A stretch of 14,665 nt of DNA from Nanobdellota archaeon (lineage in GTDB: Archaea > Nanobdellota > Nanobdellia > Woesearchaeales > JBHPGL01). Shown here piece after piece: positions 1,820 through 4,167 of the stretch (within the stretch, counting starts at the first letter, position 1; each line of letters begins with the position of its first letter). The stretch covers positions 1 to 14,665 of the forward strand of contig JBHPGL010000031.1 of NCBI GenBank assembly GCA_042570655.1, given 5' to 3'. The notes below the pieces were generated by a model. The model worked only from the letters and a program-made list of their open reading frames with translations. It had not been told where the DNA came from and did not search any database. A program made the translations under genes and the position numbers.

Positions 1820-3532
1820 ATGGAAGAATATGATACTGAATATAGTATTGATCAATTTATCAATGAAAATATTTTTAAAAGACAAATTCAAAAAATAAAG
1901 TATTTATTTAATCCAAATAAGATTGTATTGGATCAAGAACAATATTGTCATATTATTAATAAATTAACAGGAAAAATTTCTGTTCTTGAAGGAGCATGTA
2001 AAAGAAATTTAATTTATGATGAGTTTATAATTGGAACAATTGAAGATAAAGTTGTTGTTAAAGATAATCATTTTGCAATAATTAATAATCCTATTGATAA
2101 ATCTGAAAATGTTAATTATGGAGACCGAGAAGTTCGAATTGGTCCTTTATCTTTTCCATTATATCCTGGTGAAGAAGTTGAAAAGATTGATTCTAGTTAT
2201 ATTTTAACAAAATATGATGCTTTATTAATAAAAGCACTTAATGATTTTGAAGATCATAAAGCAGGAGATGAATTTTTAATTAAAGGTCCTGATAAATATA
2301 TTCCTTCTAAACATGAAGGAGTTATTGATAAAATAAAAGGAATACCTTTATCTGATACAGAAGGTATTTATGTTCAAAATAAAGATAGTGGTGATGCAAA
2401 TTTGGTTGAAGGATCTGAAGAAGAAACAATTTATTTTTTACAGCCAAACGAACAGTTTTATGAAAAAGAAATTACAAATGATGAATTAATGGGATTGGGT
2501 TTACAAGAACAAAATTCTATTGATGGAATGAGAATTTTAACAAGACAAGCTGTTAACGATTCATATCTAAGAGATAAATCAAAAGCTATTGTGATTGAAT
2601 TAGAAGAGAATGAAATAATTTGTATTTATGATGGAAGTGAGTCAAGGATTGAAAAAGGGCCAAAAACAACTTTTCTTGGACCTTATGAAAGACCAAAAGT
2701 ATTGAATTTATCAGGTGGAAAACCTATCAGACAAAATATTTTAAAGGTTGCATTGTTAAAACTTGGTCCTGATTTTATTTATGATAGAATTAATGTACGA
2801 ACAAAAGATAATGCTCAACTTATTATTGATGTTACATATAAATGGTCTTTTAATTTAGAAGATAAAGAGTTGAAAAAAGCTTTTTGTATTGAAGATTTTG
2901 TTGGTTATGCAGCTGAAACTTTATCATCCGAAATTAGATCTGTTGCTGCTTTACATGATTTTGAAGATTTTCATGCTAAATCTTTAGAATACATTAAAGA
3001 AAAGGTATTTGATGGTGAAAATAGAATATTTGATGAGAATGGATTAGCTATTTTTGACATTGATATTACATCTATTATCCCTTCTGATGAAAAGATTGCT
3101 GAAAAACTTCATGAAGCAATAAAAAATAATATGGATATTTATTGTAACAAAATGGTTTTAAATGCTACCCTTGAATCTGAAAGACAAGAAGTTGAAGGTA
3201 AAATGAAAATTGTTGATGAAAGAAAAAAATTAATTGAGAAAAATTCTCTTAATGAGAGGTTAGAAGTAATTGAAAAAGCTAAGATTAAAGCTGATGAAAA
3301 GAAAATTTATTCTGAGAGTGAAGCATTAGTAATTAAAATAAAGAATGATGCTGAGGTTGAGGCTGAAAAGAAGAAATTAGAAGTTATTATTTCTGAACTT
3401 AACAAAGATGGTGCAGAGAATTATATTAATCTTAAGAAAGTGACTGTATTTGATGATGCTGAGAAGTTAATGGTAGTACCAACTGATTCAAAAATAGTTT
3501 TACCTTATGCACAGGAGTTGTTTGAAGAATGA
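1820..3532 (+). CDS. Major vault protein (MVP)-like protein of 570 aa, with about five MVP repeats, an SPFH/band-7-like shoulder domain and a shortened cap-helix coiled coil. The ORF track begins it at TTG 1787, but ATG 1820 with the SD at 1806-1811 is the likely start.
   Basis: Several segments match human MVP blocks as I recall them. The blocks FPLYPGE, LKALLDFED and AGDEWLFEGPGTYIP correspond to SFPLYPGEEVEKI, IKALNDFED and AGDEFLIKGPDKYIP. IPLDENEGIYVQD, FFLQPGEQ and [32 protein letters not shown] correspond to IPLSDTEGIYVQN, YFLQPNEQ and LKLGPDFIYDRINVRTKDNAQLIIDVTYKWSF. VPDFVGDA, FDDFHKNS and NGLVVSSVDVQSV correspond to IEDFVGYA, FEDFHAKS and NGLAIFDIDITSI. The C-terminal approximately 90 aa are K/E-rich with a heptad character, as in a cap-helix. 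Codon usage is as AT-rich as the host genes. Confidence 0.75.
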   Translation: MEEYDTEYSIDQFINENIFKRQIQKIKYLFNPNKIVLDQEQYCHIINKLTGKISVLEGACKRNLIYDEFIIGTIEDKVVVKDNHFAIINNPIDKSENVNYGDREVRIGPLSFPLYPGEEVEKIDSSYILTKYDALLIKALNDFEDHKAGDEFLIKGPDKYIPSKHEGVIDKIKGIPLSDTEGIYVQNKDSGDANLVEGSEEETIYFLQPNEQFYEKEITNDELMGLGLQEQNSIDGMRILTRQAVNDSYLRDKSKAIVIELEENEIICIYDGSESRIEKGPKTTFLGPYERPKVLNLSGGKPIRQNILKVALLKLGPDFIYDRINVRTKDNAQLIIDVTYKWSFNLEDKELKKAFCIEDFVGYAAETLSSEIRSVAALHDFEDFHAKSLEYIKEKVFDGENRIFDENGLAIFDIDITSIIPSDEKIAEKLHEAIKNNMDIYCNKMVLNATLESERQEVEGKMKIVDERKKLIEKNSLNERLEVIEKAKIKADEKKIYSESEALVIKIKNDAEVEAEKKKLEVIISELNKDGAENYINLKKVTVFDDAEKLMVVPTDSKIVLPYAQELFEE

Positions 3533-4167
3533 AATTTGTAATATTAGGTGCTATGGAAGAAGAAGTTGCTGAATTTAAAGATTATAAAGATGTTTATGTT
3601 GCATGTACAGGTGTTGGTAAAACCAATGCTGCAATTGTAGCACAAAAAATGATTTATCAACATGATCCTGATTATATTTTTTTTGTTGGTGTAGCGGGCG
3701 CTCTTACTAATTCTTTGAATGTAGGTGATATTGTTGTTGGTGAATCTGCTATTGATATTGATATGGATGTTAGGTTATGGGATTCAAGATATAAAATTGG
3801 TGAAATTCCTTTTTCTGGTGATAGAATATTTCATTCTGATCTATTTATTGTTGATTTGCTTAAAAATCTTCAAAAAGGGTATATTGCAACAGGATCTAAG
3901 TTTTTAGATAGTAATGCTAAGAGGGAATTAGTTGATAGAATTGATGATTTTAAATTTGATAATAAAGTTCCAAATGTGTATGATATGGAAAGTGTTGCTG
4001 TGTTACAGACTGCTCAATATAATAATGTTAAATGTTTAGTATTAAGAACGATTAGTGATAATTTAAATGGCGGTGCTTCTGATTTTAATAATTTTATGAA
4101 AGAAGCTGTTCTTGGATATAAACCTATTGTTGATAATTTAATATATAAGTTAGAGTGTTTGGGCTAA
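3529..4167 (+). CDS. mtnN: 5'-methylthioadenosine/S-adenosylhomocysteine nucleosidase (PNP/UDP phosphorylase fold).
   Basis: The N terminus MKFVILGAMEEEV closely matches E. coli Pfs MKIGIIGAMEEEV, including the catalytic Glu. It also has the phosphate/ribose-binding VGVAGAL segment and the RTISDNLNGG motif with the catalytic Asp. AGGAG at 3513-3517 is a likely SD. The ATG overlaps the MVP-like stop as ATGA at 3529-3532. Confidence 0.85.
   Translation: MKFVILGAMEEEVAEFKDYKDVYVACTGVGKTNAAIVAQKMIYQHDPDYIFFVGVAGALTNSLNVGDIVVGESAIDIDMDVRLWDSRYKIGEIPFSGDRIFHSDLFIVDLLKNLQKGYIATGSKFLDSNAKRELVDRIDDFKFDNKVPNVYDMESVAVLQTAQYNNVKCLVLRTISDNLNGGASDFNNFMKEAVLGYKPIVDNLIYKLECLG

Follow-up and report, generated by a model that had tools for sequence, protein, structure and literature searches.

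The function of the eukaryotic vault is still described as unknown. Its shoulders bind NAD+, ADP and ADP-ribose, and its shell houses PARP4 and the NADase TEP1 (PMC12280208; bioRxiv 10.64898/2026.05.01.722283). In human MVP, the inter-shoulder pocket for adenine dinucleotides comprises R504, K506, R507, H509, R511, D521, F522, W545 and K573 (PMC12280208). Among prokaryotes, MVP homologues with five repeats have been described in Asgard archaea (PMC12962969), DPANN representatives have been noted at the domain level (PMC13607799), and the MVPs of Borgs have been predicted to assemble (bioRxiv 10.1101/2024.11.05.622173). These prokaryotic homologues have so far been discussed as evolutionary curiosities without a functional context. 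Here we describe a short archaeal MVP homologue whose gene is joined to that of a nucleosidase, an arrangement that recurs in both archaea and bacteria.

The window analysed here is a stretch of 14,665 nucleotides (29% GC) from a Nanobdellota archaeon. On its forward strand, an MVP-like gene (1820-3532, 570 aa) is directly followed by the gene of an MtnN-clade nucleosidase (3529-4167, 212 aa), and nearby genes include those of aRF1 and a transglutaminase-like protein. The two reading frames share the four bases ATGA (3529-3532, forward strand), in which the nucleosidase ATG occupies positions 3529-3531 and the MVP-like TGA positions 3530-3532, a junction of the translational-coupling type. A Shine-Dalgarno-like AGGAG (3513-3517, forward strand) lies within the end of the MVP-like ORF, 11 nt from the nucleosidase ATG. 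Both the overlap and the AGGAG had been pointed out in the initial annotation, and both were found at these positions. The mechanically called MVP-like ORF begins with a TTG at 1787; a GGAGG at 1806-1810 precedes the ATG at 1820, which is also the start called by NCBI and is probably the true one. A second gene overlap is present elsewhere in the window, at 10551-10554.

The anatomy of this junction was compared with that of related loci. In all six of the other DPANN-type junctions examined in which the MVP-like gene comes first (L001, L002, L035, L036 and L038 among them), the nucleosidase start has a GGAG-type motif in front of it, and only a few of the other genes in the window have such a motif. 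Start/stop overlaps, spanning 1-17 bp, were observed in seven DPANN-type loci: the 4-bp overlap is also found in L002 and L038, and the overlap measures 1 bp in L035, 14 bp in both L001 and L036, and 17 bp in L047. In the bacterial loci the two genes are separated by gaps of 62-242 bp and strong GGAGG motifs are present. The gene order is reversed in L003 and L008, where the genes are still adjacent, with a gap of only 3 bp in L003.

Several noncoding elements were identified around the pair. The upstream motif CTAATATACAAAA (1640-1652, forward strand), which is conserved in DPANN loci, may serve the MVP-nucleosidase unit as a promoter or operator. The sequence CTAATNTACAAAA occurs once in the window and, among 46 loci, only in the DPANN loci L001, L002, L013, L014, L016 and L035, always just 5' of the MVP-like gene and on the same strand. 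Directly 5' of the MVP Shine-Dalgarno, a GC-rich leader hairpin with an 11-bp stem, GAACTCCTCCC ... GGGAGGAGTTC (1756-1800, forward strand), folds with -35.1 kcal/mol (z -2.45); no conservation of this hairpin was found in other loci. Additionally, the stretch from the nucleosidase stop to the convergent gene contains a structured element of 115 nt (4176-4291), closed by a stem of 13 bp and including a T5 run. Its stem arms are unique in the window, its folding z-scores are -4.7 on the forward and -4.4 on the reverse strand, and it is a probable transcript end or novel small RNA. A riboswitch or other known RNA was considered and rejected, as no Rfam match reached the gathering thresholds across the whole window. 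When Rfam was searched by E-value, the MVP leader gave chance-level matches only and the 3' structured element gave none even at E<=1. No tRNAs were found in the window.

The upstream gene, called MVP-like in the initial annotation, encodes a genuine, shortened MVP homologue. The ORF matches MVP_shoulder in Pfam at 4.4e-27, the families Vault, Vault_2, Vault_3 and Vault_4 each score above their gathering thresholds, and a Band_7 match (3e-6) places an SPFH/Band 7 domain in the protein. The AF2 model (pLDDT 82.9; all AF2 predictions in this study are of monomers) consists of beta-repeat modules at residues 34-314, corresponding to approximately five vault repeats, an SPFH-type shoulder at 318-421 and a single cap helix of 100 residues at 424-527. 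The best Foldseek matches of this model are the solved human, rabbit and rat vault MVPs, with E-values of 5e-40 to 4e-33, followed by the SPFH proteins HflK/C-FtsH, QmcA-YbbJ, erlin and prohibitin. The maximum of the 19-residue Kyte-Doolittle hydropathy mean is just 0.9, and we therefore regard the protein as lacking a membrane segment. It shares 27-28% identity with human MVP over about 560 aligned columns, and the shoulder motifs GPDF and W545 (human MVP numbering) are kept. Of the positions lining the human NAD+ pocket, L517, D521, F522 and W545 are kept and R504 is replaced by K; the basic residues through which human MVP binds the diphosphate are replaced (K506 to I, R511 to L, K573 to E). 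As the pocket is only partly conserved, we make no claim of nucleotide binding for the MVP-like protein. An exhaustive HMMER search yielded 119 clusters at E<=1e-30 among 1.84 billion, a number that gives the family size only.

The downstream gene had been annotated as mtnN, and the family, the fold and the catalytic residues of its product all agree with that name. The protein matches PNP_UDP_1 in Pfam at 1.3e-30, its best matches in NCBIfam, PDB and fold searches are all MTA/SAH nucleosidases, and the top 50 Foldseek matches of its AF2 model (pLDDT 97.2) are all MTANs, with TM-scores of 0.76-0.87. Its scores lie under the NCBIfam equivalog cut-offs (109.7 vs 169 for NF004079 and 68.8 vs 73.8 for TIGR01704), so that "mtnN" is used here as a family assignment with orthology unproven. 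The catalytic residues E12, E174 and D197 are present together with M173, R193 and S196, and the hydrophobic 5'-alkylthio pocket is kept (M9, I50, F151, F207 and P113'). The E. coli MtnN sequence used for this numbering has the expected residues at the expected numbers. Across 21 MVP-linked nucleosidases, the catalytic and pocket residues are nearly invariant.

The linked nucleosidases share a deletion. In the window protein the beta2-beta3 hairpin is missing, leaving 15 residues between E12 and the GxGK motif; this spacing is 13-29 residues in the linked nucleosidases vs 36 in 117 canonical MtnN sequences, a loss of about 20 residues. The deletion was considered as an exclusive marker of MVP linkage and rejected, since the spirochaete-type MtnNs P0125 and P0127 also have a short hairpin and lie among ordinary neighbours. 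The initial annotation had recommended a search for a targeting peptide at either end of the nucleosidase, and none is conserved: the linked nucleosidases have no consistent N- or C-terminal extension and end where E. coli MtnN ends. No MINT-like domain was found on them either.

The conservation of the pairing was surveyed in 36 informative loci with short MVP-like genes from DPANN archaea, CPR and other bacteria. In 19 of these loci the MVP-like gene and the nucleosidase gene lie directly next to each other on one strand, and in four more the nucleosidase gene is no further than 3 kb away (23/36). The paired loci belong to Woesearchaeota/Nanoarchaeota, Uhrbacteria, Parcubacteria and other MAGs, some of whose taxon labels are doubtful. 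The most frequent other neighbour family was found in at most seven loci, and the remaining gene neighbourhood is scrambled. These observations support a single operon and a functional linkage of its two products, both of which had been suggested from the window, together with a proposed check of adjacency in related genomes that now proves positive in archaea and bacteria alike. The claim that the pairing is without precedent also holds within the searchable literature, in which we found no published report of it.

The nucleosidase is absent nearby in 13 of the 36 informative lineages, and the outgroups, Odinarchaeota and the cyanobacterial long MVP, lack the pairing; the Odinarchaeota locus examined has tandem MVP paralogues and a flotillin, with no nucleosidase. 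Moreover, P0126, a DPANN-type nucleosidase nested in the linked clade, has no MVP neighbour. Strict co-occurrence is thus ruled out by P0126 and the 13 MVP lineages, and the partnership is not obligatory, because P0126 is found without MVP and the spirochaete-type short-hairpin MtnNs occur in ordinary contexts. As candidates for a second conserved partner, the ORFs (260-283 aa) found downstream of the MVP-like gene in L004, L006 and L009, three loci that lack the nucleosidase, were rejected, having no Pfam match and being mutually non-homologous. A viral origin was likewise rejected, as the IMG/VR scan yielded a single MVP-like contig with no nucleosidase.

The evolution of the two genes was compared using distances and neighbour-joining trees. 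The distances among the MVP-like proteins correlate with those among the nucleosidases (r=0.76, Mantel p<=0.0005). In the MVP neighbour-joining tree, adjacent pairs are found across the two major clades, with losses in a few subclades, and in the nucleosidase neighbour-joining tree the linked enzymes form clades of their own outside the monophyletic group of canonical MtnN. Between the window and the bacterial loci the nucleosidases share 26-31% identity, and MVP identity between clades is 40-59%. The pair appears to have been together since before the split of the DPANN-type and bacterial-type clades, and since it has been retained for so long, both proteins most likely act together.

Our preferred reading, to which we assign a probability of about 0.68, is that the locus represents a conserved operon encoding a soluble vault-type cage and a dedicated adenosyl-nucleoside hydrolase that act together. 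It is directly supported by the gene identities, the junction anatomy, the conservation of the pairing, the co-divergence and the intact active-site residues. Transcription of both genes would most likely begin 5' of the MVP-like gene, at the motif conserved among DPANN loci, with the nucleosidase presumably co-transcribed and its translation coupled by way of the ATGA overlap and the internal GGAG motif. Copies of the shortened soluble MVP homologue probably assemble by themselves into a cage of the vault or SPFH type. The dedicated MtnN-clade enzyme is predicted to hydrolyse adenosyl-nucleosides (MTA, SAH and probably 5'-deoxyadenosine) at their N-glycosidic bond, freeing adenine. We favour an arrangement in which the nucleosidase dimer would associate physically with the cage as its client, either encapsulated inside or docked on it. 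The physiological role of such an arrangement would be to confine or regulate adenine release and the removal of SAH and MTA in salvage-dependent organisms.

The strongest competitor, which we nevertheless consider rather unlikely, is neutral hitch-hiking: a housekeeping MtnN gene came to lie beside an ancestral MVP-like gene and the two then spread and persisted jointly, in part through transfer between ultra-small archaea and bacteria, with no functional interplay of their products. The linked nucleosidases do resemble fully competent housekeeping enzymes, covariation of distances is expected of any co-inherited pair, about one third of the MVP-like lineages have no nucleosidase neighbour, and P0126 functions apart from any MVP gene. 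However, the pair persists at the low nucleosidase identity noted above while other synteny has eroded, it remains tightly spaced where the gene order is inverted (L003), and it is found in both domains with its start/stop overlaps maintained across the DPANN-type loci. The common hairpin deletion, moreover, marks a specialised subclade.

A defence module appears decidedly improbable. It would make the nucleosidase a toxic effector of the ATP-nucleosidase type (Cap17/DtcC-like), restrained by or inside the MVP-like cage and freed on virus infection. PNP_UDP_1 domains do serve as ATP-nucleosidase effectors in CBASS and Detocs, but those active in defence form a PNP clade separate from the housekeeping enzymes MtnN, DeoD and Udp (bioRxiv 10.1101/2023.01.24.525353), and the best sequence, profile and fold matches of the nucleosidase are all MtnN, with the hydrophobic 5'-alkylthio pocket conserved. 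The enzyme has a weak partial PADLOC match to a "PN-superfamily effector" (E 6e-6, 23 bits), although its PADLOC matches are all marginal (20-23 bits) and cover only 50-70 residues, and the MVP-like protein has no PADLOC match. The eukaryotic vault contains a TIR-like NADase related to an antiphage effector, and relatives of the MVP-like gene are found in virus-like elements; yet the nucleosidase here is a single-domain protein with no SAVED, response regulator, Avs or pAgo fusion or operon, and there are no defence genes beside the pair in the window and no defence island. Chance operon packing, to which the initial annotation had given equal weight, can be set aside: the genome is gene-dense, overlaps of 4 bp are common in compact genomes and the window holds another overlap, but the pairing recurs in 19-23 of 36 loci and in two domains with all other neighbours different.

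The preferred reading, a cage acting with an adenosyl-nucleoside hydrolase, gives a poorly understood vault family a conserved and testable enzyme partner, and among the kinds of evidence for a functional partner that sequence alone can offer, a gene neighbourhood kept across domains is the strongest. The partner belongs to a class of small, well-understood enzymes with easy assays and potent transition-state inhibitors, so that cage formation, binding or enclosure of the nucleosidase and binding of adenosyl ligands could be tested with two recombinant proteins. The pairing also fits the findings of 2025-2026 on eukaryotic vaults, namely adenine-nucleotide binding by the shoulders and NAD+ cleavage by cargo enzymes, and it is relevant to how DPANN and CPR organisms, which depend on scavenging, salvage purines and methionine. 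A broader and tentative proposal, which we think unlikely as it stands, is that short prokaryotic vault homologues form soluble cages around an adenosyl-nucleoside N-glycosidase, and that the handling of adenine-ribose metabolites would be ancestral to the vault lineage, continuing in eukaryotes (the NAD+/ADP-ribose-binding shell, PARP4 and the TEP1 NADase) and in giant virus-like elements (MVP genes flanked by genes with PARP domains). If true, it would provide a conserved biochemical theme for the vault and a simple two-protein prokaryotic model system.

The locus can finally be compared with known systems. It resembles the encapsulins in that a shell gene adjoins the gene of an enzyme, whose status as cargo is here only proposed; the HK97 shell fold is unrelated, and the linked nucleosidases lack a conserved terminal targeting peptide of the kind borne by encapsulin cargo. 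In the SPFH cages (stomatin-NfeD/QmcA-YbbJ and HflK/C-FtsH), which supply the next-best structural matches of the MVP-like model after vaults, a cage protein is likewise encoded beside, or works with, an enclosed client enzyme. Those cages are membrane-anchored and have proteases or NfeD as clients, whereas here there is no hydrophobic segment and the proposed client is a soluble nucleosidase. The nucleosidase shares with canonical MtnN (Pfs) the fold, the dimer-type family and all catalytic and substrate-pocket residues, and differs in the missing beta2-beta3 hairpin, the equivalog scores under the cut-offs, its separate clades and its linkage to an MVP-like gene. The MVP-like protein belongs to the same family as the prokaryotic MVP homologues reported from Asgard archaea, Borgs, cyanobacteria/Myxococcales/Cytophagales and the pan-archaeal MVP-repeat proteins, in whose reports no nucleosidase neighbour is described. 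Eukaryotic MVP is longer, with 9 repeats and about 860-900 aa vs about five repeats and 570 aa here; the partner here is operon-encoded, of another enzyme family and with other substrates, and neither vault RNA (Rfam over the window) nor TEP1, PARP, TROVE or MINT domains (domain scan of the window proteins) were detected. [quoted passage not shown]

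The ATGA overlap at 3529-3532 and the AGGAG at 3513-3517, described in the initial annotation, are both correct as written in the forward strand of the window: the stop of ORF 1787/1820-3532 overlaps the start of ORF 3529-4167 (+), which the AGGAG precedes. For the MVP-like gene, the most likely start is ATG 1820, with a GGAGG at 1806-1810 and in agreement with the 570-aa NCBI call, and not TTG 1787. The window, with a GC content of ~29%, carries the archaeal markers aRF1, an RPA-like OB-fold protein and AMMECR1. Additionally, a 1,134-aa cysteine-rich protein (4945-8349, minus strand) and a 307-aa repeat protein without a Pfam match (8673-9596, minus strand), each with an N-terminal hydrophobic segment, look like the large surface proteins typical of DPANN.

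The upstream protein is a true but shortened homologue of the major vault protein. It matches the Pfam families MVP_shoulder (4.4e-27), Vault_3, Vault, Vault_2, Vault_4 and Band_7, and the AlphaFold2 model, built with 30 homologues as input (pLDDT 82.9), has an N-terminal helix followed by about five beta-repeat modules (34-314), then an SPFH-type shoulder (318-421) and then a single unbroken helix of 104 residues (424-527), the architecture of a vault-type cage subunit. In a Foldseek search against the PDB, the top matches were the human, rabbit and rat vault shells (E 5e-40 to 4e-33; 25-28% identity over ~560 columns), followed by the membrane SPFH cages HflK/C, erlin, prohibitin, flotillin, stomatin and QmcA-YbbJ. 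No hydrophobic segment was found in the protein (19-residue hydropathy maximum 0.9), and it should therefore be soluble, a predicted property in which it resembles MVP and differs from other SPFH proteins. Family members are scarce: among 1.84 billion cluster representatives searched exhaustively with HMMER, only 119 reached E<=1e-30 and 361 reached E<=1e-10, counts that take in the MVPs of eukaryotes.

The downstream protein is a divergent member of the MtnN (MTA/SAH nucleosidase) family. It matches PNP_UDP_1 (1.3e-30), and its best NCBIfam matches are MtnN equivalogs, with scores below the cut-offs (109.7 vs 169; 68.8 vs 73.8). The 38 best matches in a PDB sequence search were all MTANs or the related aminodeoxyfutalosine nucleosidases, and the top 50 structural matches of the AlphaFold2 model (pLDDT 97.2) were MTANs only (TM 0.76-0.87). 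The catalytic and substrate-pocket residues of E. coli MtnN are all kept (M9, E12, F151, M173, E174, R193, S196, D197, F207), and the beta2-beta3 hairpin of ~20 residues is missing, the spacing from E12 to GxGK being 15 residues compared with 36 in 117 canonical sequences. The protein is predicted to be an adenosyl-nucleoside hydrolase of a specialised subclade with intact catalytic residues. As a limit on the association with MVP-like genes, spirochaete-type MtnNs with shortened hairpins adjoin genes for an aminotransferase and an M16 peptidase. A MINT-like domain is lacking, and the nucleosidases linked to MVP-like genes share no conserved terminal extension and so, unlike encapsulin-style cargo, have no targeting peptide.

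The conservation of the pairing was analyzed in loci from species-representative genomes (L001-L013), JGI metagenomes (L014-L029), exact-protein look-up (L035-L043 and L047) and IMG/VR (L046), all of them searched for relatives of the window nucleosidase (tblastn, phmmer, iterated HMM); L013 and L021, cut by contig ends, were left out as uninformative. The nucleosidase is the immediate same-strand neighbour of the MVP-like gene in 19 of 36 informative lineages (the window, L001, L002, L003, L005, L007, L008, L012, L016, L018, L020, L023, L024, L025, L027, L035, L036, L038 and L047), lies within 3 kb in four (L004, L006, L026, L029) and was not found in the flanks fetched for the remaining 13. 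All-against-all ORF clustering of the first 30 sources revealed no other recurrent family in more than six loci, the second most frequent being a divergently transcribed regulator that is taken up below; hence the rest of the neighbourhood has been scrambled while the pair persists. By label, the positive loci belong to Woesearchaeota/Nanoarchaeota, Uhrbacteria and Parcubacteria, with one 'Methanosarcinales' MAG and several 'Gammaproteobacteria' MAGs besides. The 'Gammaproteobacteria' label is questionable: four MAGs with an MVP-like gene labelled 'uncultured Gammaproteobacteria/Enterobacterales' (L004, L005, L011, L012) have a gene content, e.g. an rpsP-KH-trmD cluster, and a grouping with CPR sequences that argue against it. 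Of these, L005 and L012 have the nucleosidase next to the MVP-like gene and L004 has it at a distance of ~2.8 kb; in L011 it was not found.

In the seven DPANN-type loci with the MVP-like gene first, the two genes overlap by 1, 4, 4, 4, 14, 14 and 17 bp, and a GGAG-type motif lies within the end of the MVP gene in all six DPANN-type junctions whose sequence was examined. The gene order is reversed in L003 (3-bp gap) and L008 (122-bp gap), and in bacterial loci the nucleosidase follows 62-242 bp after the MVP-like gene, with a GGAGG ahead of it. This anatomy supports a putative operon, and together with the recurrent pairing it supports the reading, raised in the initial annotation, that the two genes form one operon and may be functional partners. 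The pair is both conserved and tightly coupled.

By neighbour joining, the MVP-like proteins fall into two large clades, one DPANN-type and one bacterial-type, with adjacency throughout both. Losses of linkage are confined to subclades (the L046/L037/L042/L015 group; L014; L009/L017/L019; L011/L022; L010), and the outgroups L041, L028, Odinarchaeota and a cyanobacterial long MVP have no nucleosidase. The Odinarchaeota locus (L039:5001-9833) contains tandem MVP paralogues and, on the opposite strand, a flotillin (Band_7 plus Flot); tandem paralogues also occur at L028:2171-5065 (479 and 491 aa in these loci). Pairwise distances of the two proteins are correlated (r=0.76, Mantel p<=0.0005). In a tree with ~125 canonical MtnNs, which like all pair trees is a distance tree only, the canonical set is monophyletic and the linked nucleosidases form two adjacent clades mirroring those of MVP. 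The comparison sequence P0126, 42% identical to the window nucleosidase, falls inside the DPANN-linked clade, and no MVP neighbour was found on its 1.07-Mb contig, a further limit on the association. The simplest reading would be a single ancient linkage, retained by selection, with some secondary losses.

The L046, L037 and L042/L015 loss subclade is borne on virus-like or very large elements. At L042:334-8718 (ENA k141_3911615, 318 kb), an MVP-like gene 57% identical to that of the window, without a nucleosidase, is instead flanked by a SNF2 helicase and by PARP-related genes, a parallel to vault PARP4. The gene 4 kb upstream encodes a protein with a PARP catalytic domain that passes the gathering score (Pfam PARP 1.8e-6), and the one 0.85 kb downstream encodes a zf-PARP protein that scores below it. 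L043 has the same arrangement, and L015 shares one neighbour that is 100% identical. These contigs of 300-600 kb, packed with small same-strand ORFs of no known identity, look like a giant virus or extrachromosomal element. L037, L041 and L046 (IMG/VR UViG 3300033147_000338) also carry MVP-like genes without a nucleosidase amid virus-like arrays of short ORFs; L037 and L046 cluster with L042/L015, and L041 with the outgroups.

The window contains a single copy of the motif CTAATNTACAAAA (1640-1652), upstream of the MVP-like gene. Among 46 loci compared, the motif was otherwise confined to six DPANN loci, where it likewise lies upstream of that gene (L001:3678-3690, L002:4889-4901, L013:7026-7038, L014:1803-1815, L016:940-952, L035:4837-4883). 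In these six it separates the MVP-like gene from a divergent double Lrp/AsnC-type HTH regulator, also found in L003; CPR-type loci have a TrmB-type regulator instead, and the window has aRF1 at this position. The long leader, otherwise 29% GC, contains directly upstream of the Shine-Dalgarno sequence a GC-rich hairpin (1756-1800; perfectly paired stem of 11 bp), which was not seen in homologous loci and whose minus strand gave weak C/D-box sRNA-like Rfam matches at chance level (E 0.7-4). The nucleosidase stop is followed by a T5 run and, between the convergent nucleosidase and transglutaminase-like genes, by a structured 115-nt element (4176-4291) closed by a perfect stem of 13 bp (TTTTTCTACTACC / GGTAGTAGAAAAA). 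Shuffled sequences fold far less well than the element on either strand (z -4.7 and -4.4), and an Rfam search relaxed to E<=1 gave no match; the element could be a bidirectional terminator or a small RNA. The motif, the leader hairpin and the T5 run with the structured 3' element would fit a single transcription unit from ~1650 to ~4290; the 3' end of the MVP gene is AT-rich, however, and may harbour an internal archaeal promoter. Oligo-T tracts can serve as archaeal termination signals, and a run of eight T is located inside the nucleosidase coding region (3679-3688) of this 29% GC genome. In one DPANN locus (L036:6712-8615), a Cys/Met-metabolism PLP enzyme (5.9e-105) follows the nucleosidase with a 4-bp overlap, an extension consistent with SAH and methionine recycling.

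The strongest competing explanation, neutral hitch-hiking of a housekeeping MtnN, is unlikely, since the pair persists through gene-order inversion and maintains its start/stop overlaps while all other synteny has eroded. Even less probable is a defence module in which the nucleosidase would be an ATP-nucleosidase-like effector: MtnN and the defensive PNP clade are separate, PADLOC matches are marginal and the 5'-alkylthio pocket is intact. Chance packing of the operon, the other possibility raised at the outset, is refuted by the conservation analysis and has hardly any probability left.

MVP homologues have been reported in bacteria (bioRxiv 10.1101/872010), Asgard archaea (five-repeat MVPs; PMC12962969) and Borgs (bioRxiv 10.1101/2024.11.05.622173), as have pan-archaeal MVP-repeat proteins, DPANN among them (PMC13607799). 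A full-text search for the MVP-nucleosidase pairing found only co-mentions in two unrelated cancer papers, and the module appears to be unreported in the searchable literature. For experiments on the function of the vault family, the pair provides a simple starting point.

We infer that the two proteins act together, the nucleosidase dimer being most probably a client of the MVP-like assembly; its encapsulation is our hypothesis. Two analogies support the client reading. A pocket between the shoulder domains of the eukaryotic vault takes up NAD+, ADP and ADP-ribose (PMC12280208), and the vault houses PARP4 and the TIR-like NADase of TEP1, two enzymes that break an N-glycosidic bond of a metabolite containing adenosine (PMC12280208; bioRxiv 10.64898/2026.05.01.722283). 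The ribose-contacting and hydrophobic residues of this pocket (human L517, D521, F522, W545) are kept in the window protein, perhaps for structural reasons, and the diphosphate-binding basic residues are not (K506 to I, R511 to L, K573 to E); we speculate that the changed pocket could accommodate an uncharged adenosyl ligand. Moreover, SPFH cages, the closest folds after vaults, are usually paired with an enclosed client, as in HflK/C-FtsH and QmcA-YbbJ/NfeD. A protein cage with a dedicated enzyme partner, as this pair would represent, is a known kind of system.
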